Positions 10,566 through 30,684 of a stretch of 64,000 nt of DNA are shown piece by piece. The stretch is from Candidatus Eiseniibacteriota bacterium. Its GTDB lineage: Bacteria > Eisenbacteria > RBG-16-71-46 > CAVPCR01. The translations under genes and the position numbers were made by a program. The DNA is taken from assembly GCA_963823555.1 (NCBI GenBank), contig CAWGMA010000001.1, positions 2,080,001 to 2,144,000 of the forward strand, written 5' to 3'. Positions within the stretch are counted from its first letter, which is position 1. Each line of letters starts with the position of its first letter. A model generated the notes under the pieces. It was not told where the DNA came from and did not search any database. It was given only the letters and a program-made list of their open reading frames with translations.

Positions 10566-13701
<3,136 letters not shown>

Positions 13702-13709
13702 CCCCCGGC

Positions 13710-15152
13710 CTAGCTTTCGCGCCGGATGGGAGGCCCGATCTCGCAGCAGCCGGCCCCGATCTCCGCCTTCAAGATCTCGGTCTTCAGGAGGAAGCTACCC
13801 ACCGTGACCACTTCCTCCGCGGGGTGCACGCCGACGACGGCGATCCAGGAGGGATCGCTTCCTGATCGTCCCGCCCGGACGTGGCGCACCTCGTATTCAT
13901 CGGCGGCGTGGCGGACGAATACGAGATGGGCCCCCTTCACTTCCTGCAGAGCGTCGCGCGGCACCAGCACCGATTCGGCGTCCGATTCAATGAATATTCG
14001 CGCTCGCACGTAACTATTCGCCCGGAGCTGGCCGTTCGGGTTGGCGATGCGGGCGCGCGCGCGCGCGGTCCGGGTCGCCGGGTCGATGACAGGCGCGACA
14101 TAGCTCAGCACCGTCTCGAATCCGGCTCCGGCTTCCGGCCGTCCTGCTCCCGGCGCCTCGATCATCACGCGCTGGCCGGGAACGACATGGGCGGCATCGG
14201 ATTCCGGGACGTCGATCTCGAGCCACAGGACGGAGGTATCGATGATCTCGAAGAGCGTCTCCTCGGGGTCGACGAGCTTGCCGAGAACAGCGTCCCGGCG
14301 TGTCACGACACCGGAGATGGGAGCGAGGAGGGAATGTTGACCCTGGATGCCCGTCCCGGCATCGGCCAGCGCGAGCGCCGCCGTCAGGGCCTCGACCTCG
14401 GCCCGCGCCGCGGCCGACTCCTCCTCGGCCAGCTCGACGGCGCGGCGCGAGCTCACTCCCTTCTCGTGCATTGCGGTCTCGCGCCGGTAGGCGGCCTCGG
14501 CCACCGCGGCCCGGGAGCGCGCGGCGGCGAGACGCGAGACGTCGGCCGCGACTTCCGCGCTCTCGATCACGGCCAGGGCGGCGCCGCGCTTGACCCGGGT
14601 GCCGACGTCGGCCTTGATCTCGCGTACCACGCCGGCGGCGCGCACGTTGATGATGGCGGTGCGAGCCGGATCCGCCACCAGCACCGCGGTCGCCAGGATC
14701 GACTCGGGTCCGGCGGCGGGTGCGGCCCGCGCCGTTTCGAATCCCGCGGCCTCGGCTGCTCCCGGCACCTGCATGTGGACCCGCGATCCGTCCTCGGGTG
14801 GGCCTCCGCCCGGGGAGGATGCCGGCGCCGCCATCCCGGGCGGGGGCTGGATCCGGCCGGGGTGGCAGATCGGGCACACGGATTCGGGCAACCGATGCTC
14901 GGCGCACCAGTCGCCAGCATCCTTGAAGCCGGCGATCAGTTCCGGATTGCATAAAGTGCAGCTCGATTCGGGAACACCGTGTCCGGCACACCAATCGGCG
15001 GCGTCGCCGGCCATCGGCACAGGCTCCGCGGCATGCGCCGCGTGATCGTGTCCGGTCTCGCCGGCATCGCCGGCCGCGCCGCCTCGTTGCGACGATCGCT
15101 CGCAGGCGGCCAGGGCGACCACGAGAAAGAGCAGGAATACGCGTGTTCTCAT
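13710..15152 (-). CDS. RND periplasmic adaptor (CzcB/CusB family) lipoprotein with Cys/His-rich N-terminal repeats
   Basis: Lipobox LAAC; lipoyl/hairpin segments (GVVREIKADVG, LAPISGVV, IDPATRT); directly upstream of czcA. Confidence 0.9.
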   Translation of the reverse strand: MRTRVFLLFLVVALAACERSSQRGGAAGDAGETGHDHAAHAAEPVPMAGDAADWCAGHGVPESSCTLCNPELIAGFKDAGDWCAEHRLPESVCPICHPGRIQPPPGMAAPASSPGGGPPEDGSRVHMQVPGAAEAAGFETARAAPAAGPESILATAVLVADPARTAIINVRAAGVVREIKADVGTRVKRGAALAVIESAEVAADVSRLAAARSRAAVAEAAYRRETAMHEKGVSSRRAVELAEEESAAARAEVEALTAALALADAGTGIQGQHSLLAPISGVVTRRDAVLGKLVDPEETLFEIIDTSVLWLEIDVPESDAAHVVPGQRVMIEAPGAGRPEAGAGFETVLSYVAPVIDPATRTARARARIANPNGQLRANSYVRARIFIESDAESVLVPRDALQEVKGAHLVFVRHAADEYEVRHVRAGRSGSDPSWIAVVGVHPAEEVVTVGSFLLKTEILKAEIGAGCCEIGPPIRRES

Positions 15153-15249
15153 CCCAACGTCTCCTGTTTGGGGCTTTTTTGTGCTCGGTCATCGGACGCA
15201 GGTCGCAACCGATGACCATCGGCTCGATGTGGGGAGGAGCAGGAGAACG

Positions 15250-15600
15250 CTAAGAGCGGGGCGGACGGTCGGGCAGGACGGCGGGAGCCTCAGGGAAGGA
15301 GGCGCGGGTGGCCGGATGGGCCGTCGTGATCTGGGGCGCAAAGGCGTCGGGCAGACTGGGGAGCGCACCGCTCTGCAGCTGGGGCTGGCAACACGGGCGG
15401 GGGCAAGCGGTGCAGTCCTCTTCCGGGCAGCAGTCTCGATCCGATCCACGGTCCTCGCCGGTGGATAGCTGCACGCCGTGGTTCGCACCTGCCGGCCCGG
15501 GCGTGGAAGCGGGCTCGGCACCACTCACCGTCGCCGCCAGGACGATGACCGGAATCACCGCCAGGAGGGCCATCCGGACGAGCGGATCGGCACCGGGCAT
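15250..15600 (-). CDS. Small Cys-rich exported protein upstream of the efflux genes (CzcI/DUF2946-like)
   Basis: Hydrophobic N-terminus, CCPEEDCTACPRPCC and C-terminal DRPPRS; typical position; start uncertain (15573-15633). Confidence 0.55.
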   Translation of the reverse strand: MPGADPLVRMALLAVIPVIVLAATVSGAEPASTPGPAGANHGVQLSTGEDRGSDRDCCPEEDCTACPRPCCQPQLQSGALPSLPDAFAPQITTAHPATRASFPEAPAVLPDRPPRS

Positions 15601-15730
15601 CCAGGAGGAGCATGTGGGCTTGCGGCGAGGCATGGGGAGATACTACCAGGGCATCCGTGGCTATCCAACCCCCTCGCCCCTACCCTCTCGGCCGCCCGCC
15701 CGGCGACATGGATGGCGCTGGCGGGTCTCC

Positions 15731-15746
15731 TGGCACCGGTCATGCA
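15731..15746 (+). promoter_or_regulatory. Sigma54-type -24/-12 promoter
   Basis: TGGCACCGGTCATGCA (GG-N10-GC), 65 nt upstream of the 15811 start. Confidence 0.6.
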
Positions 15747-15810
15747 CGGGACAAGGGACTTTTGCGGGTCTACTGCCGCAGCCGCTCCCTATCCCTGGAG
15801 GAACCGCGTC

Positions 15811-16356
15811 ATGCCGAATACTCAGAACCCGCGGCGCCGCCGCCGCTTGCTGCTCATGGCCGCGGTCACGGTGGCCGTGATCGTGCTTGCCCTCACCACT
15901 CGCAAATCGCACGCCGACACTGCATCCGGCAGCGGCTATCAGGGGTGGGGGCCGGTCATCGGGGTCGGGGTGGATCCCGATCAGGTCCACTTCGGCCTCC
16001 GCTTCGACGCCGGCGAGATCTCCAACCGCCTCAATCTCCGTCCCGGAGTCGAGGCTGGCGTGGGCGACAGCCGCTTTCGCGGTTCGTTCTCGATCGACGC
16101 CCTCTACCATTTCCGCGATCAATGGGATGTCTGGCAGCCCTATGCCGGTGGCGGACTGAGCCTCGGTATCATCGACCGCAACCAATCCGATTCCCCACTT
16201 GGGGACAGCGGTGATGCCGAGGTCGAGCCTGGGCTCAACCTGATCGGCGGCGTTTCGAGGGAGTTGAAGAGCGGCAACCGCTTCCTGACCGAACTTCGCT
16301 TCGGCATCGGCGAGGCGCCGGATCTGGGCCTGGCCGTGGGCTGGATGTTCCGCTAG
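15811..16356 (+). CDS. Outer-membrane beta-barrel protein (small, 8-strand type)
   Basis: GGAGGA SD; signal peptide; alternating beta strands, PYAGGGL motif, C-terminal VGWMFR. Confidence 0.8.
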   Translation: MPNTQNPRRRRRLLLMAAVTVAVIVLALTTRKSHADTASGSGYQGWGPVIGVGVDPDQVHFGLRFDAGEISNRLNLRPGVEAGVGDSRFRGSFSIDALYHFRDQWDVWQPYAGGGLSLGIIDRNQSDSPLGDSGDAEVEPGLNLIGGVSRELKSGNRFLTELRFGIGEAPDLGLAVGWMFR

Positions 16357-16373
16357 GCGAGACTTCGAAGAGG

Positions 16374-16574
16374 CTACAGGCGGTAGACGTCCCCGGCACG
16401 CGTATGCTCGACGATCGGCCGGCGGGTGCTGGATTCGGGGGCGGAGCTCACAGGCCTGGGCATCGGTCCGGCCACGCCAGGCGCTACCGGGGCGTGGCGG
16501 CGAGCAGGCATGATCCAGCCGAGGCAACGCTCCAGAAGGCTATGGGGCATCTCGGGCGAGCGATCGTCGACCAT
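16374..16574 (-). CDS. Small hypothetical protein (66 aa)
   Basis: GAGGAG SD before ATG 16574; sigma54-like element upstream. Confidence 0.5.
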   Translation of the reverse strand: MVDDRSPEMPHSLLERCLGWIMPARRHAPVAPGVAGPMPRPVSSAPESSTRRPIVEHTRAGDVYRL

Positions 16575-16620
16575 CGTCTTCTCCTCATGATGACGGGTGT
16601 GGATTCGATCGCGCTGACTA

Positions 16621-16636
16621 TGCAAGTTTGATTCCG
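16621..16636 (-). promoter_or_regulatory. Sigma54-type -24/-12 promoter candidate
   Basis: Minus strand CGGAATCAAACTTGCA (GG-N10-GC with TTGCA). Confidence 0.45.
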
Positions 16637-16655
16637 CAGAGGTTCATCTCCGCGG

Positions 16656-16700
16656 AACAAAGAAGATCGGGCCTCCGCCGCAAGGTGGAGGCCCGATCTT
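16656..16700 (-). terminator. Intrinsic terminator of korAB
   Basis: 14-bp perfect stem AAGATCGGGCCTCC / GGAGGCCCGATCTT followed by CTTTGTT on the minus strand. Confidence 0.8.
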
Positions 16701-16734
16701 GCTTCACTCTGGGTCGTTACGGCCGACGCCAGGA

Positions 16735-17757
16735 CTACTCGACGGTCCAGGTCTCCGGCCCGCGAATCAGTTTCTCGAGATCGCCGGCACTCCGCGCCGA
16801 GACCTCATCGATCTGCTTGTGAATCGCTCGCCCGAGCGTGGGCAATTCCACCCGCCGGAAGACTCCGATCGGGAACGGAAACTCCGGCGGCACCATCCGG
16901 CTCAGGATGTACGCCACGGTCGCGTCCGGGTCATCCTCGTCATGCACCAGGAGATCGTCGGGCGGACTCCCCGGCGCGAACTCGACCACCTCGAGCCGCG
17001 TCCCCTTGAGCCGGATGCCCTTGTTCATCTCCTTGCCGAAGATGAGCGGCTTCCCGTGCTCGAGGGCGATCGTGCGGTCGTCGCGCACCGCCTTCTCGGT
17101 CATATCGAGGAAGGCGCCGTCGTTGAACACGTTGCAATTCTGCAAGATCTCGACGAAGGCCGAGCCCTCGTGACGAGCCACGTGAGTCAGCGTCTCCTTG
17201 AGATGCCCCGGGAACACATCGACCGTGCGCGCCACCATGGTGGCCTCGCAACCGAGCGCGAGCGAGATCGGGTTGAACGGCCGATCGAGCGAGCCGAAGG
17301 GGGTGGACTTGGTTCTCTGGCCCAACACCGAGGTCGGGGAATACTGCCCCTTGGTCAGCCCGTAGATGCGGTTGTTGAACATCAAGATCTTGAGATCGAT
17401 GTTCCGCCGCAGGGCGTGGATCAGGTGGTTGCCGCCGATCGAGAGCGCGTCTCCGTCACCCGTGGCAACCCAGACCTGGAGGTCGGGATTGGCGATCTTG
17501 ATACCGCTCGCGATGGCCGGCGCCCGCCCGTGGATGGTGTGGAAACCGTAGGTGTTCATGTAGTAGGGGAAGCGGCTCGAGCAGCCGATGCCCGAGATGA
17601 ACACGAACTTCTCGCGCGGAATCCCGAGTTCCGGGAGAACGGTCTGCACCGCCTTGAGAATCGAATAGTCCCCGCACCCGGGGCACCATCGCACCTCCTG
17701 GTCGGAGACAAAGTCCTTGCGGTTCAGTGGCTGGCTCGTCGCCGTCATCGTGCTCAT
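16735..17757 (-). CDS. korB: 2-oxoacid:ferredoxin oxidoreductase beta subunit
   Basis: WCPGCGD, SGIGCSS, HTIHGR, GDGD...NN TPP-binding motif; ATGA overlap with the alpha subunit. Confidence 0.95.
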   Translation of the reverse strand: MSTMTATSQPLNRKDFVSDQEVRWCPGCGDYSILKAVQTVLPELGIPREKFVFISGIGCSSRFPYYMNTYGFHTIHGRAPAIASGIKIANPDLQVWVATGDGDALSIGGNHLIHALRRNIDLKILMFNNRIYGLTKGQYSPTSVLGQRTKSTPFGSLDRPFNPISLALGCEATMVARTVDVFPGHLKETLTHVARHEGSAFVEILQNCNVFNDGAFLDMTEKAVRDDRTIALEHGKPLIFGKEMNKGIRLKGTRLEVVEFAPGSPPDDLLVHDEDDPDATVAYILSRMVPPEFPFPIGVFRRVELPTLGRAIHKQIDEVSARSAGDLEKLIRGPETWTVE

Positions 17758-19637
17758 GACCCCTTGCTCCCCACGGCGAGCACCTCGTCCGCTCGCTGCT
17801 TGATTTCCTTCACCTTGAACGGTCGGCCCTGGACCTTCGCGTAGCTCGCGATGTCGATGAGATAGCGAGCGCGGAGCAGGAAGGCCAGCTGACCCATGTT
17901 CATCTCCGGAACCAGGATCCGGTGATAACGCTTGAGCACCTCGAGCGTGTTGCGGGGCATCGGGTTCAGATAGTGGAAGTGAGCCCGCGCCACCTTCTTG
18001 CCCTCGCGCTGCAACTGCTCGAAAGCACCGACGATGGCGCCCTCGGTCGAGCCCCAGCCCAGAAGGAGCAGGTCTCCCTCGGCCGCTCCCTCCACTTCGA
18101 GGAGCGGGATGTCGTTGGCGATGCCGGCGACCTTGTCGGCCCTGAGATGCGTCATCTCCTCGTGATTGAGCGGATCGTAGCTCACGTTGCCGCTGCCGCT
18201 GTGGTGCTCGAGGCCACCGATGCGATGCTCGAGTCCGGGGGTGCCCGGCCGCACCCAAGGGCGCGCCAGGGTCTGCGGATCACGCTGGAACGGCAGGAAG
18301 CCCTCTCGATCCTCGCGGAACTGGACCTTGTACTCAGGGATGTCAGCCAGGTTGGGCACCTTCCACGGTTCGGCGCCATTGGCCAGGTAGCCGTCGGTGA
18401 GAAGAATGACCGGCGTCATGTACTTGGTGGCGAGGCGTCCGGCCTCGACCGCCATGTGGAAGCAATCGCCTGGCGTCGAGGCGGCCAGGACCGGCATCGG
18501 GGCCTCGCCGTGGCGACCGAACAGCGCCATCAGAAGATCGGATTGCTCGGTCTTGGTCGGCAACCCGGTCGACGGGCCGCCGCGCTGGACATTGACGATG
18601 ACGAGCGGCAACTCCGTGGTCACCGCGAGCCCCATGGTCTCCGCCTTGAGCGCCATTCCCGGTCCGGAGGTCGCCGTCGTGCCCAGGCAACCGGCAAACG
18701 AGGCGCCCAGCGCCGCGCCGATGGCCGCGATCTCGTCTTCGGCCTGATACGTGATGACACCCAGGTTCTTGAGGCGCGAGAGCTCGTGGAGCACGTCGGA
18801 GGCCGGCGTGATGGGGTAGCTGCCATAGAATATCTGCAGCCCGGCCTTGCGCGCCGCGGTGACGAGACCGAGCGCCAGCGCGTTGTTGCCGGAGATGTTG
18901 CGATAGGTGCCCGGCTCGAACCGCGCCGGGCGCACCTCGTAGGTGGTCTGGAAGAGCTCGGTCGAATGCGCGAAGTTGTAGCCCCCGTTCAAGGCCAGCT
19001 GATTGGCCTCGATGAGCTCCGGACGGCCGGCGAACTTGCGCTCGATCCAGCGCATGGTGGGATCGAGCGATCGATTGTAGAGCCAGTACATGATACCCAG
19101 AGCGTACAAGTTCTTGCAGCGATCGACCGCCTTCTGGCCCTCGGTCTGACGCAGCGTCGAGTTCTCGAGTGCGGTGCGTGTGAGCTTGGTCAACTCGACC
19201 TTGATCACGCGAAAGGCGTCGAGCGACTGATCCTCGAGCGGATTGGAGGTGTAGTGAGCGAGCTTGAGATCTTGATCGCGAAACGAATCGGTGTTGATGA
19301 CCAGGATGCCGTTCGGCTTGAGCTCTGGCAGGTTCACCTTCAATGCAGCGGGGTTCATGGCCACGAGCACATCCGCCTGATCACCAGGGGTGTGGATGTC
19401 GTGGTTGGAGAACCGGACCTGGAATCCGGACACACCCGGTAGCGAACCCGCCGGGGCGCGGATCTCGGCGGGAAAATCGGGGAACGTGGCGACATCGTTG
19501 CCGGCGATGACCGATGTCGCCGTGAACTGATCGCCGGTGAGCTGCATCCCATCGCCGGAATCGCCGGCGAAACGCACGGTGACGGTTTCGACTTCCTCGA
19601 CCCTGCGACCGGGGCGGGAAGTTAGCTCGATGCTCAT
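17754..19637 (-). CDS. korA: 2-oxoacid:acceptor oxidoreductase alpha subunit (gamma-alpha fusion)
   Basis: AGDSGDGMQ, YPITPAS, QAEDEIAA, QRGGPSTGLPTK, PEMNMGQ. Confidence 0.95.
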   Translation of the reverse strand: MSIELTSRPGRRVEEVETVTVRFAGDSGDGMQLTGDQFTATSVIAGNDVATFPDFPAEIRAPAGSLPGVSGFQVRFSNHDIHTPGDQADVLVAMNPAALKVNLPELKPNGILVINTDSFRDQDLKLAHYTSNPLEDQSLDAFRVIKVELTKLTRTALENSTLRQTEGQKAVDRCKNLYALGIMYWLYNRSLDPTMRWIERKFAGRPELIEANQLALNGGYNFAHSTELFQTTYEVRPARFEPGTYRNISGNNALALGLVTAARKAGLQIFYGSYPITPASDVLHELSRLKNLGVITYQAEDEIAAIGAALGASFAGCLGTTATSGPGMALKAETMGLAVTTELPLVIVNVQRGGPSTGLPTKTEQSDLLMALFGRHGEAPMPVLAASTPGDCFHMAVEAGRLATKYMTPVILLTDGYLANGAEPWKVPNLADIPEYKVQFREDREGFLPFQRDPQTLARPWVRPGTPGLEHRIGGLEHHSGSGNVSYDPLNHEEMTHLRADKVAGIANDIPLLEVEGAAEGDLLLLGWGSTEGAIVGAFEQLQREGKKVARAHFHYLNPMPRNTLEVLKRYHRILVPEMNMGQLAFLLRARYLIDIASYAKVQGRPFKVKEIKQRADEVLAVGSKGS

Positions 19638-19939
19638 GATCTCCTGATCCTCAAGCGTTGGGGAAACGCCTGCTCATCCCGACCGCTTCAGCGGGACCGG
19701 GCCGGGAACGGGGCAGGCATGGCCGCGACATCCGGGGCTCTCCCGAGGACTCGACCGCAAGCCACTCCTTCACGTTCTGATTGCGCCGGCACCCCAGGAG
19801 GTTCCCGGCGGGAGCCGGGTGAGACCGGCGGCGGCGCGGGGCAGGCGCCGTCCTCTCGGCAACAGAAGAAGGCGCCCGAGTTTATCACCCGGGCGCCGCT
19901 AAGTTCAACGTGCCGGCCGGGCGAGGCCCGACCTGGGTA

Positions 19940-22003
19940 TCAGGGCAACAAGATGACCTTGCGGCTGGCATGGAACGCTCCAGCCTGGGCACTCACCAAG
20001 TAGATCCCCGGGGCCACACGCTGGCCGCGGTCGTCCCGTCCATCCCAAGCCATCTCGGCAGCCCGGACGTCGCCCGGGAGCCCGGTAGCCAGGTGACGCA
20101 CCACACGCCCGTCCACGCTCACCACCATCAGGTCGGCAGCGATCCCCGCCGGGACCTCGACGGTGAACCGGACATCGGCCTGGGCCGGCTGCGGATGCGG
20201 AAGCGAGAGCCGAAGCCCCGGAGCGGCTGCAGCGCCGGAGCGCGTCGCCGCGACCGGCACGAGGAACCGCTCGACCGGAGCACCGGGGGCCGTCCAGCCC
20301 ACCCGGTACTCGTAACGCACTCCGCTGATTGCCGTTACGTCGACAAACCGAGCCCAGCTTCCGTCCGCCCGGATCGGGTCGGCGTTGACCTTGATGAAGG
20401 GATCGTCGCTCGAGAGCTCGACGGCCATTCGCTTGACCTCGGCTGCCCGGAGGTTGGCCTGAGCGAGGCTGGCCTTGAGCGCCAAGATCTCGGCTTCCCG
20501 TCCCGGACCGTCGGCGAGGGCCGGCTCGAGCTCGCGGCGATAGAGGTTGAAGAGGGTGCCGGGCACGAAGTGGTCCGCCTCCCAGGCGACCTCGATGCCC
20601 TCGGCGCGGGGAGCGGCGATTGGCTCGGGCATCGCCACGGCGGCCGCATCGTTGCCCTCGAGGCAGAAGAGCCGGCCGCCGACGCCGTTCAGCATCTGCG
20701 TCCCGACCAGCACGTCGGGGATGCCGTTCCCCGAGAGATCTCCTACCCCGCGAACGGAAAACACTCGCGCCCCGACATCCACCGACCAGATCTCGGCTCC
20801 CGTCACGCCATCGTAGAGGTAGGCCTTGCGATCGAACGATCCGGCGATGACGTCCGAGATGCCGTCGCCGGTCACGTCGTCGACCCGGTCGACGGCCCAC
20901 ACGTCGCCTCCGTTCAGGGTCCCCGCTTCCATCACCCAGATCTGGCTCCCGTCAGCCCCCGAGATGACGTGGGTCGCGTTGTCCCAGGAGGCGACGACAA
21001 CATCGGGCATCTGATCTCCGTTCACGTCGTCAAGGGGTACGATCCGCATTCCGTACTCGCTGGCCCCGACCGTGTACTGCCAGATGGGCGCTCCGTTGAC
21101 CCCCGACAGGCAGCGCGCCTGCTGGGCGCTGCCCCAGGCGGCGAACAAGACATCGTTCTGCTCGTCACCGTTGACATCGACGAATCCATGGGTGTGCCAG
21201 GCCGTGGCTCCGAGGTTGGCGATCCACAGCGTGCTCGCGGTTCCCACGCTGGCCCCGCTCACGCAATAGGCGCGGGTATCCCCGTCTCCACCACCGAAGA
21301 CCGCGTCCCACTTCCCGTCCGAGTTGACGTCCCCGAGCGCCGTCGAGGAGTAGATGACATCGAGCGCATAAAGACGGTAGATGACGCTCCCGGTCCGGCC
21401 GTTGACGCAATACGCGCCGTCATTGAAACTGCCGCAACCGAAGATGACGTCGGCCACGAGATCATTGTCGAGATCGGGAATGGGATGAATCGTGTAGACC
21501 CAGCCCGATGTCGCGGGCACGGGTGGCGTCTGGACGTAGGTGTCGAAGGTCCAGAGCGCATCCCCGGTACGGGCGTCGACACCATAGGCGCTGCGTCCGC
21601 CCCAGGCCGTGCCCAGGACGAGATCCGGGAATCCGTCGTTGTTCAAGTCCGGCGCGGCGTTCAGGCAATCATCGCCGTCGCCGCCCGAGTTGGAAGGCCC
21701 TCCGGGAGGGCGCGCTGACCAGATGACCGCCGGCGTCCCGGTCGAGCCACCGCTCAGGAGGTAGAGATGATCCGCAGTTCCGGCACCCGAATCGTAGGTC
21801 TCGGTAGCGATGTCGGGAACCCCGTCAAGGTCGAGGTCGGGCACCTGAACCGAGGCGTTGATGTCCTCGATGCCCTGGAAGACCCAGATCACATCGCCGG
21901 GAGCGGCCTGAGCGGGCGGGGAGGCCCCTACGACGGCGATCGCGCAGAGGAGGACGAGGGTGGAAGCGATGGCGGCCGGGTCGAGCGTGCGCCAGAGTTG
22001 CAT
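19940..22003 (-). CDS. Secreted FG-GAP/VCBS (PQQ-like) beta-propeller protein with C-terminal FlgD Ig-like domain
   Basis: Repeated D[LV]NxDGxxD motifs with GxxLW blades; signal peptide; WDGRDDRGQRVAPGIY tail; GGAGG SD before ATG 22003. Confidence 0.85.
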   Translation of the reverse strand: MQLWRTLDPAAIASTLVLLCAIAVVGASPPAQAAPGDVIWVFQGIEDINASVQVPDLDLDGVPDIATETYDSGAGTADHLYLLSGGSTGTPAVIWSARPPGGPSNSGGDGDDCLNAAPDLNNDGFPDLVLGTAWGGRSAYGVDARTGDALWTFDTYVQTPPVPATSGWVYTIHPIPDLDNDLVADVIFGCGSFNDGAYCVNGRTGSVIYRLYALDVIYSSTALGDVNSDGKWDAVFGGGDGDTRAYCVSGASVGTASTLWIANLGATAWHTHGFVDVNGDEQNDVLFAAWGSAQQARCLSGVNGAPIWQYTVGASEYGMRIVPLDDVNGDQMPDVVVASWDNATHVISGADGSQIWVMEAGTLNGGDVWAVDRVDDVTGDGISDVIAGSFDRKAYLYDGVTGAEIWSVDVGARVFSVRGVGDLSGNGIPDVLVGTQMLNGVGGRLFCLEGNDAAAVAMPEPIAAPRAEGIEVAWEADHFVPGTLFNLYRRELEPALADGPGREAEILALKASLAQANLRAAEVKRMAVELSSDDPFIKVNADPIRADGSWARFVDVTAISGVRYEYRVGWTAPGAPVERFLVPVAATRSGAAAAPGLRLSLPHPQPAQADVRFTVEVPAGIAADLMVVSVDGRVVRHLATGLPGDVRAAEMAWDGRDDRGQRVAPGIYLVSAQAGAFHASRKVILLP

Positions 22004-22192
22004 GAGACCTCCACGGCTGGGGTGGTGCTTGCCCACGATTCTAGCACTCCTGTGTGGCGGCGACCAAGTCGGATACCAAAGCAATCGGCGAGCGCTGAGC
22101 AGGGTACGCAGCGCTCGCCGATCGACGGGAAAGAGGCCGGCCCTCTCGACACCGTGTGGAGCGAGGGCTCGACCGCTCGGCGAAAAGTCGAC

Positions 22193-22390
22193 CTAGAGGT
22201 CGGCCGGCTTCAGGGTCTTCCGGTTGTTGGCCAGAGCGCGTTCCTCGGCCTCGGCGATGAGCTGACGCACCTTCCGGTCGAGCGCATCGTAGAACTCGCT
22301 CGAGACATTGCACCTCGTCGCCGCCGCCTTGGTGCGGGACTTCGAGATGATGAGCTCGCCCGCTGCGATCTTGTCAGTGATCTCGGTCAT
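22193..22390 (-). CDS. Bacterial histone-fold protein (short alpha3 type; DUF1931/Bd0055-like)
   Basis: AAGGAGG SD; 65 aa; alpha1-L1 (SKSRTKAAATRCNVS), long alpha2 (EFYDALDRKVRQLIAEAEERA), L2-alpha3 RKTLKPADL matching RxTxxxxD. Confidence 0.85.
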   Translation of the reverse strand: MTEITDKIAAGELIISKSRTKAAATRCNVSSEFYDALDRKVRQLIAEAEERALANNRKTLKPADL

Positions 22391-22467
22391 TCCAGCCTCC
22401 TTGGGGAAAGGAACGGAGTTCCTGGGACTTGATGAGGTCGCCCCTTATCCGGCGCGCATTCGCCACC

Positions 22468-23670
22468 TCAAGCGTACTCGGGACTGGCGGCCGGCGGACG
22501 CGAGGCTTCCCTGCGGTAAAGGGCGCACTCCTCGACCAGCGTTCCCGGCCCCTCCAGATAGGACTCGATCTCGGCCGGCCCAGCCGAGAGCGGAAGGCCG
22601 TGGTCCGGGTTCGCCTGGGCGGCTCGCACGCGCTCGATCAACTTGAGGGTGATCGGACCCGGCCGCCCGCCACCCACGGCCTGGCCCGCGATCTTGATGA
22701 TGGGCATCACACCGGCGCCCGTGCCGGTCATGAAGCACTCGCGATCGGGACCGATGACATCGATGGGCAGAATATCGGCCTCCTCATCCACGTGATAGCC
22801 AGCCTCTCGGGCAAAGCCCAGGATCAGAGCCCGCGTCACACCGTTCAAGCAGTAGGCGCGGCGCGGTGTGGCCACCACGACCCGGCCCGGGTCGCTCTCC
22901 CAGCCGGAGCGCCGCTCGATCAGGAAGAAGTTGTCGACGGTCGCCTCGGCCACGAAGCCCTCCTTGGTCAGCATCAGAGCCTCGAGCGTCGTGGAATTGC
23001 GCGTGCCTTCGATCAGGGCCAGCACATTGTTGAGGTAGTTGTTGCTCTTGATGCGGGGATCGAGGACGGTGGCATCCGGGCGGCGTATGGTCCGGGCCAG
23101 ACCGATCTCGATGCCGGTCTCGTACATCTCACGCGGATAGAGCCGGATCGTCGAGGTCAGCGAGAACAGGGTCGGCGCCACGCACTTGCGCGGGTTGATA
23201 CCGAGATCACCCATCCCCCGGCTCAGCACGAGCCGGATGTAACCCGCGCCGCCAACTGCGCTGAGATCCACCTCGCGCGACACGGCGAGGATGAGCGATG
23301 TAAGCTCGATTTGTGTGTAGGGAATCTCGACGCCGATCCGGCGTGCCGAAGCCCAGAAGCGATCGATGTGTTCCTTGAAGAGGAAGATGCGATTCCCGGT
23401 AATGAGGATGCCCTCGAAACAACCGTCGCCATAGAGCACGAGGTGGTCGAAGCACGGCAGCCCGATCTCATCGACGGCGAAATGGCCGTGCCGCCGTTCG
23501 TACGCGGAGCCTGCATGGCGCTCGGATCGCGCTGGATCGAGCAGGACTCGCGGGGTGACTCCCGGCACAACCGGCATGCTGACGAAGATTCGCGCGCGCC
23601 GCGCCGCTTCGGCCAGGGCTTCTGCCCTGCTCGTAACGTCGGCCTGATGGGACGTATCACCGGTACGCAT
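22468..23670 (-). CDS. Class IV (fold type IV) PLP aminotransferase, IlvE-like
   Basis: LYGDGCFEG, EHIDRF, YIRLVLSRG, IKSNNYLNN (PLP Lys), EATVDN, LNGVTR, FMTGTGA; GGAGG SD. Confidence 0.9.
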   Translation of the reverse strand: MRTGDTSHQADVTSRAEALAEAARRARIFVSMPVVPGVTPRVLLDPARSERHAGSAYERRHGHFAVDEIGLPCFDHLVLYGDGCFEGILITGNRIFLFKEHIDRFWASARRIGVEIPYTQIELTSLILAVSREVDLSAVGGAGYIRLVLSRGMGDLGINPRKCVAPTLFSLTSTIRLYPREMYETGIEIGLARTIRRPDATVLDPRIKSNNYLNNVLALIEGTRNSTTLEALMLTKEGFVAEATVDNFFLIERRSGWESDPGRVVVATPRRAYCLNGVTRALILGFAREAGYHVDEEADILPIDVIGPDRECFMTGTGAGVMPIIKIAGQAVGGGRPGPITLKLIERVRAAQANPDHGLPLSAGPAEIESYLEGPGTLVEECALYRREASRPPAASPEYA

Positions 23671-23916
23671 CAGCTTCCTCCATCGACTCCACAACTGAAG
23701 ACCCTGAAGACCTGGGTGCCGGGCATGGGCACCGGGCGCCGACGCGGATGGGGATGGAAAGGACCGACCGGCGCGCGGCCGGGTGGGCGAACTCGTCGCA
23801 CCCGGCGCTGAGCATAGCCGCGGTCAGGCGCCAGCCTCAAGCGAAAAGCCGGCGCCAGGCCTGGGCGGGACCGAAGCACCCACCAGAGAGACGGCGGATC
23901 CGGCAAACTCCGTGGA

Positions 23917-24516
23917 TCACTGTTGATGGGGATTCCCTGCCCCCTCGCCGAACACTTGCGCGGTGAACGCAAAGAGCTTGGCATCCGTGTTTCGCCACGC
24001 ATCCTCGCGCAACCCGGCCTTCAGACAAACCTGACGGAGGAACATGTCGCGGCCCCACTGCTGCTCCGTGGCCACCTGCGGCAACAGGAGCCCGCGCCGT
24101 CCACCACTCTCGATGACCAGGCCGTGCCGTCCGGGCTCGACCTCTTCAGGGGCAACGGGTACCAACAACCCCATGACTGAAACCTCGACGTCAACGGCGG
24201 GCAACTCCTCAGGCTCGATAGGCGGAAAGCGGAAGTCCTTGCAGGCTGCGCTCACCGCGTTTTCCATCACCGCCGCGACCAGCGGACGCATCGGCTCGAT
24301 GAACCCCACGCAACCGCGGAGTGCGGAGCCGCGGTGGAGCGACACGAACGCACCTTGGGGCTGGAGCAGGCGAGGGGAAACAGGCATCCCGTGCGGTGGC
24401 CACGTGACGACCTTGCCTTCGCGGACCACATGTTCGAGCGCCAGCCGGGCGAAGGACAGGATTTCGCGCTGCTCATCAGGAGAGAGCGCGGGTAGCGAAT
24501 GGGGATGGGTTGTCAT
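23917..24516 (-). CDS. AMMECR1-domain protein (AmmeMemoRadiSam protein A)
   Basis: GAFVSL...LRGCVG, DFRF, GRHGL, GLLLPQVA, LKAGL. Confidence 0.92.
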   Translation of the reverse strand: MTTHPHSLPALSPDEQREILSFARLALEHVVREGKVVTWPPHGMPVSPRLLQPQGAFVSLHRGSALRGCVGFIEPMRPLVAAVMENAVSAACKDFRFPPIEPEELPAVDVEVSVMGLLVPVAPEEVEPGRHGLVIESGGRRGLLLPQVATEQQWGRDMFLRQVCLKAGLREDAWRNTDAKLFAFTAQVFGEGAGNPHQQ

Positions 24517-24636
24517 GACCGTACCGCTGAGCCGAAGCCGCGCCAAAGAGAAGATCGCTCAGTGCGCGTTGATCACGCTATCACGCGCAACGAGAACGGT
24601 CAACGGCACCGGCCCGCGTCGGCCCTGGCAGCCGGG

Positions 24637-24768
24637 CTAGCTACCGGATTCGGCTGGCGGCGACTGCCGCGGCTTGCGAGCCGAGCGCTGATTCTTGCGG
24701 CGCACCTTCAGTCGCTTCTGGCGGCGCTGGCGCTGCCGCCTGAGTTCTTTCTTGCGTTCGCTACCCAA
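24637..24768 (-). CDS. 43-aa highly basic protein (DUF6800-like)
   Basis: Below the track cutoff; TGGAGG SD then TTG; MGSERKKELRRQRQRRQKRLKVRRKNQRSARKPRQSPPAESGS. Confidence 0.65.
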   Translation of the reverse strand: MGSERKKELRRQRQRRQKRLKVRRKNQRSARKPRQSPPAESGS

Positions 24769-24921
24769 GGGATTCCTCCACGATTCATAGGGAACATGGC
24801 GAGAACAGCGGCAGGGAGCCTAGCATTCTCCCCTGCCTGCTGTAAAGCAGGCCGAGGAACCGCTCGATCCGATCAGGCTCGTTGGCGGACGAACTCGACC
24901 GCCCTGCAACGTGGTCTCCTG

Positions 24922-26049
24922 CTATCGGCGCACGGCGACAGCGATGGGTCCATCACCGGTCGCGAACGACGCGACCAGCGTATCGGATGCAGCATCGACA
25001 ACGTAGACTCGATCATCGTCGAAATCGCTCACATAGAGCAGACCGGAGATCGGATCGAAGGCCATGGCGGTGAGGAACTCGGCCCCGCGGATGGCGTTGG
25101 CCTCGCCGGCCATCCGGCTGGCGAGATCGTAGATGCGCAGGCCCCCGGTGAATCCCGCGGTAAAGCCTCGGTCCCGAGAAAGGGGGATGGCGGCTACCGG
25201 CGACCCACCGAGCGCAACGGAGTCGACCACGGCCGGGACTTCCGGATCGATGACAAAGAGCTCTCCCTCCACGCCTCCGTTGGGTCCATAGTCACCGGTG
25301 CAGACGACGTGAATCCTGCCGTCTGGGGCCAGCGCCAGGGACTGCGGGTTGATCCCGACAAGAAGCCGCGCCCGCACCGTATCCACCGGCACGCTCATCA
25401 CGACGACCTCACCGGGATCATAGACATACGGCGCCACGTAATTGGTGACCGTCACATAGAGATCACCCGCTGGCGGCACGCCGGCCGGCGCGCCTCGCTC
25501 ACCGCCGGCAGCGACGAAGAGCACCCCCTCGGGACCACGCCCAACCGGAGTGCGATGGACGACCTGGCCCGCCGTCAGATCCACGTGGGACACGTCGTTC
25601 GTCATCCAGTTGGAGACGTAGGCATCGCCTGCCCCGGCGAGTGCCAGCGAGTACGGGCTCGTCCCTGATCCGAGATCGATCACGCTCCGGCCGATGACGC
25701 GATCCAGATCGATGACATCGATCCGATTGCTGCCCGAGCTCACGACATAGCCTGTGGTCCCATCGGGGGCGACAACGAGATCATTGGGAAAGGCGCCCAC
25801 CGCCATGGCGTTGGCAGCGGACTCTCCGGTCGATATGAGATAGCGCGACAGCGTCTCGCCAAGCGAATTGACGGTGAACACAGCGGGCTCGAGTGTCGGT
25901 GGCACGACATCGGTCACGTCGTCACCACAACTCATGCCGAGGAAGACCATCGGCAAGAGCATCACCGTGATCCGCAGCGGCGGCACCTGCCGGTGCGGGG
26001 CGCAAGCAGTCCATGTCCGGAGTGGCGAGCGAACTCTCGACTCTCTCAT
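24922..26049 (-). CDS. YncE/BtuG-like beta-propeller lipoprotein
   Basis: Lipobox LGMSC; YVTN-like blades (VGAFP, YVSN, VGRGP, YVTVTN, VGINP, TGDGP); ATGA overlap with the receptor stop. Confidence 0.8.
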   Translation of the reverse strand: MRESRVRSPLRTWTACAPHRQVPPLRITVMLLPMVFLGMSCGDDVTDVVPPTLEPAVFTVNSLGETLSRYLISTGESAANAMAVGAFPNDLVVAPDGTTGYVVSSGSNRIDVIDLDRVIGRSVIDLGSGTSPYSLALAGAGDAYVSNWMTNDVSHVDLTAGQVVHRTPVGRGPEGVLFVAAGGERGAPAGVPPAGDLYVTVTNYVAPYVYDPGEVVVMSVPVDTVRARLLVGINPQSLALAPDGRIHVVCTGDYGPNGGVEGELFVIDPEVPAVVDSVALGGSPVAAIPLSRDRGFTAGFTGGLRIYDLASRMAGEANAIRGAEFLTAMAFDPISGLLYVSDFDDDRVYVVDAASDTLVASFATGDGPIAVAVRR

Positions 26050-27974
26050 CGTGTCTCCAAGGTGGCCAGACGCAGGGCCAGACGCCACTCGCGTCCGGGA
26101 AGTGGATAGTCGCGCACATCAACAGCGGCAACGCCGCCGACGTTGCGGACGGCTAGAGATGCCTTGAGGCGCGGGCCAAGTTGTTGCTCGGCGCTCAAGT
26201 CGACCAGCCCGTATCCGGGCAGCGATTTCGTGTTGGCCGCGGTGACGTAGCTCTTTCCCACGCCATGCCAGGCGGCGCGCAGATCGAGCCCGCTCGAAAC
26301 CGGCACCGCGATCTCGACGTGACCTTCGACCAGAGCCCGGTACGGGAGACGCCTGCCCCCCACCTGCGCATCGCCGGTGCGATTGCGGGCATCCAGGAAG
26401 GTCACAGCGGCTTCGAGCTCGCCTGGACGCGGCAGGCCGGCGAACGAAACTGCGGTCGAGCCCTCGATCTCCAGCCCCTGGACCACGGCCAGGCCGATGT
26501 TGTGTGGCCGGTAGCGCCCATCCGGTCCCGCGGTCCACTGGATCAGCTGGGCAATCTCACGATGAAACGCGCTCACCGCCAGCCGCGCCCCACCACCGCG
26601 CGGACCGGCGAACCCGCGCTCGAGACCCACCTCGAGCTCGGTCGCGAGCTCTGGATCCAGATCCGGATTGATGAGCGAGGCGCCACGATCAGCGGCAAAG
26701 AGGTCATCGAAGCTCGGTGGACGATAGGCGCGTCCGGCGGCCGCGCGCAGCTCGAGCGCTCGCGGCAAATGCACCGCAACGGCCAGGCGTGGGCTCACCA
26801 CTGCTTCGAGCCCGCTCTCCACGTCGAGCCGCACCGCGGGAGCGACCTCGAACCGGCCCCTCCCCCATCGCCAGCGCACGTACCCGGCGGCGGTCCGGCG
26901 TTCGCGAGCGCCATCCACCGTGGACTCGAGGGTGGCGCGCCGCCATTCCATCCCGGCGGAAAGCAATGAAGCCGCGGCCACTCGATCGAGGCGGAGGTCG
27001 AGACCAAGAGCACGGTTCACGTGGCGATCCGCGATGGCCAGGCCGGGATCGGAATACGACCGGCGTTCCCGATGTCCGTTGACAGCCAGGGTGAACCGCG
27101 AACCGGGCTCGCCGGCGGTCCCACCGAACGCCAGTTCGGTGGCCACTCGCATCCGGCGATCGCCGCGCTGGGCAGCGGGAGTGGGAAACTCGACCGTTCC
27201 TGGCACCCCCTGCTCGCCGCTATCCAGCGCCCCATCGAGCGTGATCCCGAGACCGGAGTCCGAGCGCATCTTGAACCCGAGCGCTGCGCCCAGCGCCTCG
27301 ACCTCGGCATTCTGACGCGAGACCTCCTGGCCGCGCGTTGTGAGGCGGTAGTCCCCGGCGGTCGTCAACCCGGACGCTGAGAGCCAGAACCGGCCGCCTG
27401 GCCCGGCTCTCTGCTCGTGCGCCACCGTGGCGGCGCGGGTCCCGAAGCTTCCGGCCTCGAGACGGAACGTGGTCGCGTTCCGCGCGGCTCCCGTCGGGCG
27501 CGTCACCAGATTGACGACCCCGCCGAGAGCATCCGAACCGTAGAGCGCCGAGGCGCCCCCCCGCACCACTTCGACTCGATCGAGAGCGGCCACGTCGATG
27601 GCACCAAGATCGACGCCGCCGCCCTGAGCCGGGGTCAAGCGCCGGCCGTCCACCAGAACGAGCACCTGCTCGTTCGATACCCCGCGGATCGAGAGCGAGG
27701 CAAAGCTGCCCGGCGCGCCGAAACGAGCCACGCGGAGACCGGGCACCCACGCCAGCGCATCGGCGACGCGCAGGACACCGCAACGATTCAGGTCCGTGCC
27801 GCGGAGGGTGGATGAAGCGACGGGGAGGTCGGCGTTGAGGCTGCGCCAGGCTTCGGCCTCGACCGGGATGGGTTCGAGGACGTAGCGGACGAGAGAATCG
27901 GGAGGGGCTGGCTCCGCCGCTGCATGCGCAGCGAGGAACACGCTCCAGGCGGCAAGCACGAGTCGCGCGAGCAT
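26046..27974 (-). CDS. TonB-dependent receptor, BtuB-like (cobalamin uptake)
   Basis: Plug motifs SIRG, VLVLVDG, RVEVVRGGASALYGSDALGGVVNLVT; barrel motifs NPDLDPE, PLPGR; downstream of a B12 riboswitch. Confidence 0.9.
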   Translation of the reverse strand: MLARLVLAAWSVFLAAHAAAEPAPPDSLVRYVLEPIPVEAEAWRSLNADLPVASSTLRGTDLNRCGVLRVADALAWVPGLRVARFGAPGSFASLSIRGVSNEQVLVLVDGRRLTPAQGGGVDLGAIDVAALDRVEVVRGGASALYGSDALGGVVNLVTRPTGAARNATTFRLEAGSFGTRAATVAHEQRAGPGGRFWLSASGLTTAGDYRLTTRGQEVSRQNAEVEALGAALGFKMRSDSGLGITLDGALDSGEQGVPGTVEFPTPAAQRGDRRMRVATELAFGGTAGEPGSRFTLAVNGHRERRSYSDPGLAIADRHVNRALGLDLRLDRVAAASLLSAGMEWRRATLESTVDGARERRTAAGYVRWRWGRGRFEVAPAVRLDVESGLEAVVSPRLAVAVHLPRALELRAAAGRAYRPPSFDDLFAADRGASLINPDLDPELATELEVGLERGFAGPRGGGARLAVSAFHREIAQLIQWTAGPDGRYRPHNIGLAVVQGLEIEGSTAVSFAGLPRPGELEAAVTFLDARNRTGDAQVGGRRLPYRALVEGHVEIAVPVSSGLDLRAAWHGVGKSYVTAANTKSLPGYGLVDLSAEQQLGPRLKASLAVRNVGGVAAVDVRDYPLPGREWRLALRLATLETR

Positions 27975-28096
27975 CGCACCCTCCGACGAGGCACGAACGT
28001 CGCAGCCGGGGCCCCTTGCCCCGGTGCGGCGGCCGAAGACTCGCGAGAAGGTGCCGGCGGCTGCATCACCGGCTCAAACGATCCACGCACCTCGAC

Positions 28097-28123
28097 AAAA
28101 AACCCCGCCTCGAAGAGGCGGGG
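28097..28123 (-). terminator. Attenuator terminator of the cobalamin riboswitch
   Basis: Minus strand CCCCGCCTC-TTC-GAGGCGGGG-TTTTTT between the aptamer and the receptor gene. Confidence 0.85.
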
Positions 28124-28162
28124 CGCGCCAAGTGCCCTTCCCTCGAAGGCCTCCGACCTAGA

Positions 28163-28320
28163 AGCTTGGGAGCAGGTCTCCTGACTTGCGGGTCGCTCTA
28201 CTTGCTGCCACTTCCCAGGGATCGTTCCCCAGTGTGCTCACGCAGCTTTCGTCGCCGCTCACAGTGGCGGGACCGTGCCGGATTTGCACCGGCTTCCCTA
28301 ACGCATCCCAAGCGGTATTC
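28163..28320 (-). ncRNA. Cobalamin (AdoCbl) riboswitch
   Basis: Minus strand AGGGAAGCCGGTGCAAATCCGGCACGGTCCCGCCACTGT ... CACTGGG...CTGGGAAG ... B12 box AGTCAGGAGACCTGC. Confidence 0.95.
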
Positions 28321-28377
28321 GATTGGTGGCCGGGTCAACCCCGGCTTGAAGCATCATGCGCCGCCCCGTACGGTCCG

Positions 28378-30684
28378 TCAAGCTCCTTTCGGCGGAGCCA
28401 GATGGAGGCGCAACGAGGCAAATGCAGAGAGCGCGCGGCTCGCACGATCGATCTTCCGATACACCGGGATCCCGGCTCGCTGCAGGAGGGTGACCGTGGG
28501 ATCGTAGAGCCGTCCGGAATCCATCGAGACCACGAGCGGCTTGGTGATGTTGCGGCTCAGACGGATGATCTCGGCCGGCAGCGAACCCAGGGCGAAGATG
28601 TTCTCCGTGTGTCCGCCCGAGAGATCGGGCGCGAGCACCTCGAGCATCGGCGCTGCCGGCACGGCGGAGACAATGAGCGCATCGACGTTGGGGTCGCCGG
28701 CCAAGATCTCGACGGCCCGGATGAAACTCGCCGTGTCGGCCATCGGGGTGGCATCGACCGGGTTCCCCGCGTGGGCGATGTCAGGCAGGCAGGCGCGCAG
28801 AGCTTCGCGCGTTGTCGAGGCGAGATCCGCCAGCTCGAGGGAGTAGAGACGATCGCTCACCGCGCCGCACTCGAACCCGGCGTTGGAGATGGCGCCGATC
28901 CGGCGGCCGGTGATGGTCCGCCCGTCGAGCATGGTCAGAATCTTGGTGAAGTCCTCGAACTGGTTCAAGGTCTCGGGAACAATCGCGCCGGCGCGGGTGA
29001 GCAGTGAGCGGGCGACTTCATAGTCTCCTGCCATGGAGGCCGTGTGACTGGCGGCGGCGCGAGCGCCGAAGGCCGTCTTGCCCGCCTTGTAGATGACCAC
29101 CGCCCGCCCGGTTGCGGTCGCCCGTCGCACCAGATGGACGAAGCGTTCCCCCTCTCCCCGCTGGAAGCCCTCTATATAGAAGGCAAACACGTGGGCCGCG
29201 GGCTCGTTCTCCAGGTAGTACTCGAGGAAATCGCCCGCCGTCAGGTCCATCTCGTTGCCGTAGCTGATCGAGCTGCGGGGGAAGATGATGCCATCCAGGT
29301 TCGAAGTGAAGGTGACGAGATAGGCGCCGGACTGGCTGACCGCCACGAGCACATCGCCCGGTGCATCGTGAAACGGCAACTTGTAGGTCGGCAGGAAGAA
29401 GGTGTTGTACTCCCCCTTGCTGACGATCCCAAGGCAGTTGCCCCCAACCATCACCGGACCTGCCTCGTCCCGACGCGGGGCGCTGGCGAGGCATTCCTGG
29501 ATCTCCTGGGCCAGGCTCGCGTCTCCCGTCTCGGCAAACCCTCCCGGGATGAGAATGATCGAGCGCGCCTTTTGTTGACGGACGATGTCGGCGATGGCAT
29601 CTCGAGCCCCGCTGGCTGGGATCGAAATCACGGCCAGGTCCACCGCCTCCGGCAGGCTCGCCGTGTCGGGGTAGCAGGTCACGCCGTCAATGACCTGTTC
29701 CTTGGGATGCACGCCATACAGCTTGCCGTAGGTGATCCCGTTCGCCGTCTTGAGATTGCGCAGAATGATCCGACCCGCATTCATCACCTTGCTGCTGGCA
29801 CCGTAAATGGCAGCACTCTTGGGATGGAGCAGGTGCCTGATGACGCCGACCGGGCGCGGCCTCCGGCGCCCGGGTTCCGGGCCGGCCAGACGAACGAACG
29901 CGTCGAGGGCCACCAGCCGTCCGCCGGCGGCGGCCACCGGATTCAGCTCGATCTCCTCGAACGCCGGGGCTGTGGAATCGAGCGCGAGCGGCGCCTGCGC
30001 GAGCCGGGCGAGACCGGTCAGGATATCGACCAACCCCGCCGCCGGAACCGGTGCCTTGGCATGGACGCGCCCAGCGCGCAATGCCAGTTCGCCGAGGGCG
30101 AGCGCCTCGATCGCCGCCAGGGCTGTGGCTGGATCGAAATCCACGGCGGGCATGACCAGGCGCGTCTGCGCGGCGGAGAGACGTCCGTACCACTCGGCGA
30201 GAAGACCGCCGAGGCCGAAGAAGAGCACGGGGCCGAACGCCGGGTCGCGCCGCGCGCTGAACAGGTACTCGAACCCGGGGACATTGGCCGAGAAGGCGAT
30301 GTGCTCGGCCACCAGAACGCCGCGCCGATCCGTACCCGCCGGTGCGCGCTGCCGCACCTCGTCGAGCATGCGAGCGATCCCGGCGTTCACGGCCTCGAGA
30401 TCGCGCGCGACCACGGCCACACCGCCCATCTCGGTCTTGTGCACGATGTCGGGCGAGACGATCTTGAGCACCACCTGCTTGCTCGGGAGCGCCGAGAGAT
30501 CCGCGGCAGTCACGACCGCACCTGCTGGCACAAAGAGGTGCGCCGGTGTCGGGATACCGACAGCCGCAATCAGCTGGTAGGATTCGTGCTCGAGAAGGGT
30601 CATCCGCTGCTCGCGGCGCGCCGCCGCGAGCAAGGGACTCAGGTCCATCCGGGTCGTTGACCGCGCCATCGGTGTCGTCGTCAT
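28378..30684 (-). CDS. ADP-forming acyl-CoA synthetase (ATP-grasp domain first, then CoA-binding/ligase domains)
   Basis: VLKIVSPDIVHKTEMGGV, DPAFGP, IELNP, GGNCLG, SQSGA, AASHTAS (phospho-His), NPVD. Confidence 0.9.
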   Translation of the reverse strand: MTTTPMARSTTRMDLSPLLAAARREQRMTLLEHESYQLIAAVGIPTPAHLFVPAGAVVTAADLSALPSKQVVLKIVSPDIVHKTEMGGVAVVARDLEAVNAGIARMLDEVRQRAPAGTDRRGVLVAEHIAFSANVPGFEYLFSARRDPAFGPVLFFGLGGLLAEWYGRLSAAQTRLVMPAVDFDPATALAAIEALALGELALRAGRVHAKAPVPAAGLVDILTGLARLAQAPLALDSTAPAFEEIELNPVAAAGGRLVALDAFVRLAGPEPGRRRPRPVGVIRHLLHPKSAAIYGASSKVMNAGRIILRNLKTANGITYGKLYGVHPKEQVIDGVTCYPDTASLPEAVDLAVISIPASGARDAIADIVRQQKARSIILIPGGFAETGDASLAQEIQECLASAPRRDEAGPVMVGGNCLGIVSKGEYNTFFLPTYKLPFHDAPGDVLVAVSQSGAYLVTFTSNLDGIIFPRSSISYGNEMDLTAGDFLEYYLENEPAAHVFAFYIEGFQRGEGERFVHLVRRATATGRAVVIYKAGKTAFGARAAASHTASMAGDYEVARSLLTRAGAIVPETLNQFEDFTKILTMLDGRTITGRRIGAISNAGFECGAVSDRLYSLELADLASTTREALRACLPDIAHAGNPVDATPMADTASFIRAVEILAGDPNVDALIVSAVPAAPMLEVLAPDLSGGHTENIFALGSLPAEIIRLSRNITKPLVVSMDSGRLYDPTVTLLQRAGIPVYRKIDRASRALSAFASLRLHLAPPKGA

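Follow-up and report, generated by a model that had tools for sequence, protein, structure and literature searches.

The stretch of DNA analysed here (64,000 nucleotides, referred to as the window) contains an open reading frame of only 65 amino acids at positions 22193 to 22390, which a preliminary description had assigned to a bacterial histone with a truncated third helix (α3). This raises the questions of whether such a short frame is a gene at all, whether its product is a histone and, if so, to which type of prokaryotic histone it belongs. The translation obtained was identical letter for letter to the one given earlier, and the frame was located on the minus strand, a detail absent from that account. 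The coding sequence (22193-22390, minus strand) comprises 65 codons and a TAG stop codon (22193-22195); it was assigned from the sequence and its translation, from matches to solved histones and from mostly synonymous differences to kin. The AAGGAGG Shine-Dalgarno sequence claimed previously was found on the minus strand (22396-22402), 5 nt upstream of the ATG (22388-22390). As no in-frame ATG, GTG or TTG occurs between the two elements, the start is well placed.

Approximately 70 nt past the stop codon, folding by minimum free energy revealed a G+C-rich 16-bp hairpin followed by CUUUGG (22082-22124, minus strand). The 136-nt hairpin region had a minimum free energy of -67.2 kcal/mol (z = -4.04), and none of 200 shuffled sequences was equally stable. 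This hairpin, which is devoid of a strong U tract, is likely the transcript end of the histone gene; consensus promoter and terminator scans of 21900-22800 gave no match. In the RNA library X19, two contigs spanned 22179-22476 with zero differences, and they were the only X19 contigs on 12001-32000. They give a weak hint at transcription of the histone gene, as DNA may be present in such libraries. Exact contigs from two further libraries fell on adjacent genes, one from X18 on that of an FG-GAP protein (21170-21385) and one from X20 on that of an aminotransferase (22767-22977). RNA-library contigs cannot rank genes, and gaps in their coverage prove nothing. Another X18 contig (210 nt, depth 12) agreed with the histone core only over its 31 most conserved nucleotides (window 22321-22360) and then diverged; it probably derives from a different organism of the same sample that also has a histone gene.

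A word-indexed protein search yielded 49 candidates, 48 of them at E ≤ 1e-3 with the query included (47 others, best E = 1.8e-25), and the nearest homologs were 71-aa proteins with 80-85% identity. A profile of 40 homologs matched 806 clusters of a 50%-identity representative library at E ≤ 1e-3 and 123 at E ≤ 1e-10. In contigs from one genome per species, a relative was encoded in 527 of 570 pattern-matched stretches. Comparison of 54 core codons with those of the closest genome (locus L001) gave 30 identical codons, 19 that differed only synonymously and five that changed the residue; in four other comparisons, 14-19 synonymous versus 12-13 replacement differences were counted. The length of 65 aa in a G+C-rich genome with abundant long spurious open reading frames on both strands, together with zero Pfam and NCBIfam matches at threshold, might point to a chance frame or a mis-called gene. 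In view of the homologs, clusters and loci in other species, the mostly synonymous differences to kin, the strong and correctly spaced Shine-Dalgarno sequence and the matches to solved histones, such an origin is extremely improbable. The many homologs and the predominance of synonymous codon differences indicate that the frame is under purifying selection; the 65-aa open reading frame is a real, conserved gene.

For the alignment, 40 of the 48 matches were used; P0003, P0005, P0006, P0015, P0019 and P0030 were dropped unseen for thinning, and P0013 (over-long N-terminus) and P0048 (deviant C-terminus) were also omitted. Invariant in these 40 sequences were I15, S16, K17, R19, T20, N28, F33, Y34, A36, D38, R42, A48, R51, A52, N55, R57, K58, T59 and D64, and all of them terminated with D-L or D-I. 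P0048, encoded on a 743-nt contig, is one of 48 homologs and has no C-terminal RKT...D motif; it counts against strict invariance and may be an assembly error.

When solved structures were searched with the single sequence, the distinct matches at E ≤ 10 were four chains, every one a prokaryotic histone: 9F2C (E = 1.2e-5), 8CMP (0.037), 8FVX (0.037) and 9QT0 (0.073). With the 40-homolog profile, E-values of 3.3e-9 (9F2C), 7.5e-6 (9QT0), 0.13 (8CMP) and 0.17 (8FVX) were obtained. 9F2C is HTkC, described as an archaeal face-to-face (FtF) histone of Thermococcus kodakarensis (PMC11390915), and 9QT0 is HLp (also solved as 9QT1 and 9QT2), described as a tetrameric FtF histone of the bacterium Leptospira perolatii (Hu et al. 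2025, PMC12701072); 8CMP and 8FVX are HBb (Bd0055), the dimer histone of Bdellovibrio bacteriovorus. With prokaryotic α3 histones as the only top matches in both searches, the assignment to a bacterial histone with a truncated α3 was borne out.

The AlphaFold2 model of the monomer had a pLDDT of 65.4 (below 50 for residues 1-16) and helices at residues 21-26, 31-54 and 62-64 (DSSP). The low confidence is as expected because the chain is half of an intertwined dimer. In a Foldseek search, this model gave zero matches at E ≤ 0.001; chains of HTkC, HBb and HLp occupied ranks 1-9 (probability 1.00, E = 0.014-0.046, TM 0.58-0.71), followed by NF-Y, H2B, H4 and other histone folds. VIA-align scored HTkC with Z = 4.2 (rmsd 3.1 Å, 52 aligned) and HLp and HBb with approximately 4.0 (range of the chains 4.2-3.7), where Z values around 4 are below the level that the tool calls distinctive. 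As the structural scores were weak in absolute terms, the family assignment was based mainly on sequence.

Pfam DUF1931 (PF09123) matched with E = 0.0021 and 18.7 bits, below its cut-off of 21.8 and only at profile positions 19-53 of 138, and CBFD_NFYB_HMF (PF00808) with E = 0.017 and 15.8 bits, below its cut-off of 21.4; the NCBIfam scan of the 65-aa protein gave zero families. Among the 40 homologs, seven matched DUF1931 and two CBFD_NFYB_HMF at E ≤ 0.01. The histone fold proposed earlier was recovered by Foldseek, with α3 histones at all of the first nine ranks, but the two Pfam families named for it stayed below threshold. A pseudodimeric DUF1931 histone was ruled out by the single 65-aa fold and the bit score, and a nucleosomal archaeal histone of the PF00808 type by the bit score and an α3 of three residues versus approximately 10. 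As neither Pfam nor NCBIfam gives this protein a name, histone genes of this kind are easily left annotated as hypothetical.

The α3 histones are defined by an α3 of 3-4 residues and a shortened α2 (Schwab et al. 2024, PMC11390915). The window protein follows the order α1-loop-long α2-loop-α3, with an α2 of 24 residues, an α3 at residues 62-64 and its end at residue 65. The RxTxxxxD motif of α3 histones (RD clamp) was also found, with R57, T59 and D64 invariant in 40 of 40 homologs. A terminal RKTxxxxD motif had been noticed before; it is present as R57-K58-T59 and D64, and codons 57-65 (RKTLKPADL; 22196-22222, minus strand) encode this clamp, the three-residue α3 and a C-terminus one residue past the Asp.

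Two types of α3 histone, Bd0055 and the FtF type, had been named in the preliminary description. According to the text of PMC11390915, bacterial dimer histones are devoid of R48 and N52 of the FtF sequence logo, the residues making the dimer-dimer contact. In HTkC, the R45A variant is reported to elute as a dimer instead of a tetramer, R45 being paired with the carboxylate at the C-terminus of the opposite dimer (bioRxiv 10.64898/2025.12.06.692711). In the window histone, R51 (codon 22238-22240, minus strand) aligned with this tetramer-forming R45 of HTkC and with R49 of HLp, corresponding to R48 of the logo. N55 (codon 22226-22228, minus strand) aligned with N53 of HLp, a dimer-dimer contact residue, and corresponds to N52 of the logo, two residues before the clamp arginine. 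Both residues were invariant in all 40 homologs, and the chain ends, like HTkC, one residue past the clamp Asp with a free C-terminal carboxylate. Since the alignments were ungapped, R51, N55 and R57 are equated with R49, N53 and R55 of HLp. The histone was filed under the FtF class, whose defining feature is the ring tetramer, because of this sequence signature, and by it the protein belongs to an already described family as a further member.

Among the known FtF histones, HTkC is the best sequence match of solved structure (42% identity in the 45 columns aligned by Foldseek). Both proteins share the SxEFYDAL start of α2, the tetramer arginine, the RKT...D clamp and the same C-terminus. The likeness of the S.EFYDAL segment to archaeal FtF histones, pointed out in the preliminary description, was thereby substantiated, as HTkC has VSPEFYDAL at the aligned position. 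Unlike the bacterial window histone, HTkC comes from an archaeon, in which nucleosomal histones occur beside it; it has four extra residues in loop 1 and carries a Glu at the position of the invariant N55. The tetramer and DNA wrapping are experimental in HTkC and predicted for the window histone. HLp is, like the window histone, a bacterial protein with a single histone fold; the profile alignment between them is ungapped across the fold, and the RD clamp R55-D62 of HLp corresponds to R57-D64; the identity is about 30% (Foldseek).

An HBb-like protein that remains a dimer and bends DNA without forming a tetramer would be the alternative. HBb (8CMP, 8FVX) has the same α3-truncated fold and RKT...D motif, its chains were among the top structural matches at the level of HLp, and the single-sequence E-values of the two were close. 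In addition, three of the six dimer-dimer contact residues of HLp differ in the window histone (S52 to A54, T61 to A63 and F63 to L65). The profile, however, matched HTkC and HLp far better than HBb, the Arg and Asn reported absent from bacterial dimer histones are invariant, and the C-terminus ends exactly as required for the R45-carboxylate salt bridge of HTkC. The sequence evidence favours the FtF tetramer type over the dimer type of Bd0055/HBb, which acts by DNA bending as a dimer, and we regard a dimer-only protein as unlikely. Of the two types named at the outset, FtF was retained and the Bd0055 type was not.

For the favoured FtF type, the mode of action may be sketched from the homologs. 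The chains would pair into handshake dimers, two of which would close face to face as a ring via R51, N55, R57 and the C-terminal carboxylate. DNA would be contacted by the N-terminus of α1 (S16, K17 and R19) and by loop bridges formed from N28/V29 with K58/T59. The DNA-contacting residues S14, K15, K17 and T57 of HLp align with S16, K17, R19 and T59, all of which are invariant; the DNA-contacting K21 of HLp aligns with A23. Wrapping of approximately 60 bp of DNA without sequence preference is reported for HLp (PMC12701072) and for HTkC (bioRxiv 10.64898/2025.12.06.692711). Judged by its residues and by analogy to these two proteins, the window histone probably assembles from handshake dimers into a ring homotetramer, which would likewise wrap about 60 bp irrespective of sequence.

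Natural tandem doublets of the window histone family served as a proxy for the dimer. Eighteen such proteins of approximately 113-130 aa were found (including P0085, P0086, P0093, P0094 and P0098), and both halves retain the Arg, the Asn and the R-x-T...D motif. A model of P0093, aligned with the 17 other doublets, reached a pLDDT of 93.8 and a pTM of 0.85. Each half was composed of a strand, α1, a bridge, a 24-residue α2, a second bridge and a three-residue α3, and P0093 is predicted from this model to form a histone pseudodimer within one chain, both of its α3 helices being truncated. The model matched single-chain histone dimers, namely the doublet histone 1F1E of M. kandleri (E = 3.6e-5), H2A-H2B chimeras and 1WWI. 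An hhalign comparison of the window family with the doublet family was ungapped over residues 12-65 (99.3%, E = 3.6e-20), and the mapping derived from the doublets places α1 at about residues 17-23, α2 at 31-54 and α3 at 62-64 of the window histone. Two relatives had other architectures: in P0088 (160 aa), an FtF-like fold with a basic tail is extended at the C-terminus by an acidic stretch of approximately 80 residues, and P0127 (260 aa) comprises a region of approximately 130 N-terminal residues followed by two histone folds.

The window genome (G000; 4.62 Mb, 4 contigs, 92.5% complete) contains a single copy of the histone gene. Four HU/IHF matches (PF00216) above cut-off were identified on its contig C1, at 251572-251838, 417725-418006, 1494897-1495163 and 1707714-1707998; two of them are parts of longer open frames (185 and 288 aa). 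This differs from Leptospira, the source of HLp, which is reported to be without HU and Dps (PMC12701072). With HU/IHF genes in the same genome, the histone would be one of several nucleoid proteins and not necessarily the main protein of the chromatin; its putative role is that of a nucleoid-associated protein alongside HU/IHF.

In a sample of the Eisenbacteria phylum, the histone gene was present in 14 of 151 genomes (G000 included), or in 13 of the 118 of high quality. Its presence tracked family: it occurred in all sampled genomes of families f4 (7/7), f5 (2/2), f14 (2/2), f2 (1/1) and f13 (1/1) and was not found among those of f3 (0/60), f7 (0/32), f15 (0/12) and f11 (0/10). Given the four HU/IHF matches and the presence of the gene in only 14 of 151 sampled genomes, the histone-based chromatin proposed earlier for this lineage is to be regarded as putative. 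Relatives with 62-82% identity carried titles of Eisenbacteria, Krumholzibacteriia, Latescibacterota, Methylomirabilota, Myxococcota, Planctomycetota, Gemmatimonadetes/Gemmatimonadota, Spirochaetales, Fibrobacteraceae and others. The main text and three of the four supplementary files of Schwab et al. 2024 (PMC11390915) contain none of the six phylum names searched for, not even Myxococcota, and the phylum figures are evidently images. Full-text literature on Eisenbacteria, Eiseniibacteriota or Krumholzibacteriota gave no paper mentioning a histone among the matches listed. Judged by the titles of the relatives, the FtF family extends beyond the phyla that its defining papers mention in their main text. 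Recognition of histones in bacteria is recent, and studies exist for few of them; with the window gene, an uncultured Eisenbacteria-like lineage joins the bacteria that have the FtF type. The FtF family including bacterial members was already described in 2024-2025, and the finding in the window leaves the picture of these proteins unchanged.

A quick tree was calculated from 80 rows, the window histone and 79 loci; L030 (278 aa, mis-called start) and L081-L096 were omitted, the latter consisting of HU/IHF loci (L081-L084), the window's own locus (L085) and the phylum sample with several repeats (L086-L096). Of the 76 inner branches, 36 were open, and most forks did not resolve. Lineage labels were nevertheless clustered beyond chance (24 changes versus a mean of 45.2 after shuffling). 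Rows titled Eisenbacteria required five changes, at least two of them forced by starred branches. The window histone and L001 were joined by a long, supported branch (0.73, SH-aLRT 99). L068 joined the window histone via an end branch of 1.18, a placement that was not trusted.

The sole unusual trait of the window histone is its non-basic N-terminal tail. The tail MTEITDKIAAG (codons 1-11; 22358-22390, minus strand) contains one basic and two acidic residues, and the whole protein has a net charge of +2 and a pI of 8.9. Most bacterial FtF histones are described as carrying positively charged tails (Schwab et al. 2024, PMC11390915). In agreement, the tails of the relatives were mostly rich in lysine and arginine, with net charges of +8 to +14 for tailed members; across 91 loci, a set that includes the mis-called L030, the median was +11, and values of +3 or below were found in just four. 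In the nearest kin (P0002, P0004, P0007 and L001), the tails contain 3-4 acidic residues but no basic ones, and the net charges are 0 to +1. A relative of the same order (L007/L096) has a basic tail and a net charge of +12. Low charge is not unique to this group, as tail-less 56-aa relatives from several lineages have net charges of 0 to +5. Because of the acidic or neutral tail and the low net charge compared with that median, the DNA affinity may be lower; speculatively, the short non-basic tail could possibly lower or modulate it relative to lysine-tailed relatives.

Taken further, the protein might have kept the histone fold with DNA binding that is weak, switched off or regulated by the acidic tail, and would then serve as a specialised or conditional factor instead of a general nucleoid packer. 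Such a role would fit the charges of the protein and its closest kin, the long and well-supported branch of their clade and the four HU/IHF genes in the genome. It would also fit a suggestion made for coiled-coil histones, whose acidic tails might cover the face that binds DNA (Schwab et al. 2024, PMC11390915). The invariance of the core residues aligned with the DNA contacts of HLp speaks against it, as do the similarly low charges of the tail-less relatives and a tail length of only 11 residues. Likewise, the aligned part of HTkC is weakly basic by count from the alignment, although HTkC wraps DNA. On balance, we consider loss or attenuation of DNA binding quite unlikely, and a DNA-wrapping FtF histone remains the preferred reading.

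Slightly less doubtful, though still improbable, is the related proposal that the window histone belongs with its closest kin to a distinct FtF subclade of Eisenbacteria made up of attenuated or regulated histones, in which an acidic or neutral tail replaces the lysine-rich, H3-like one. If true, a nearly uncharged histone, the only one of its genome, would operate beside HU/IHF, and its tail would compete with DNA for the binding face or recruit a partner, making it a bacterial counterpart of a histone variant. Such an acidic-tail subclade is the sole lead towards something new, and the window histone, with its non-basic tail, provides a naturally occurring contrast by which the role of the basic tails of bacterial histones could be examined.

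The histone gene is flanked by genes for a class IV aminotransferase, an FG-GAP protein, AMMECR1 and POR; the SMC/MAP neighbourhood known from HLp was not seen around it. Among 91 loci, this set recurred only in L001 and L007/L096. In L001, the closest locus (82% identity, titled Candidatus Eisenbacteria), the aminotransferase and POR were 81% and 82% identical, respectively. The nearest upstream open reading frame, evaluated in 86 loci, varied by lineage: class A PBP (6 loci), amidase (5), Beta_elim_lyase (4), ABC2+Rce1-like (4), Aminotran_4 (3), dCTP deaminase (3), GST (3) and peptidase M20 (2) were found, the remainder being other families occurring singly and many crude frames without a family. 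No neighbour conserved across lineages or hinting at a role in chromatin was detected in the 91 loci, or in the 86 with a nearest upstream frame, and an operon link for the histone gene was rejected because the neighbours differ by lineage.

Downstream of the histone gene, the FG-GAP/beta-propeller repeat protein is encoded at 19940-22084 (minus strand), with its listed TTG start (22084) within the hairpin. Judged by eye, the true start looks to be the ATG at 22003, which has GGAGG in front of it and the signal-peptide-like sequence MQLWRTLDPAAIASTLVLLCAIAVVGASPPAQA behind it. Genes for a 2-oxoacid:ferredoxin oxidoreductase are located at 16735-19637 (minus strand); they comprise a 627-aa frame with POR_N and POR domains and a downstream 507-aa frame that overlaps at its end. 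A 642-aa open reading frame with a signal-peptide-like start lies at 26046-27974 (minus strand), and its product, by eye, presumably resembles an outer-membrane receptor.
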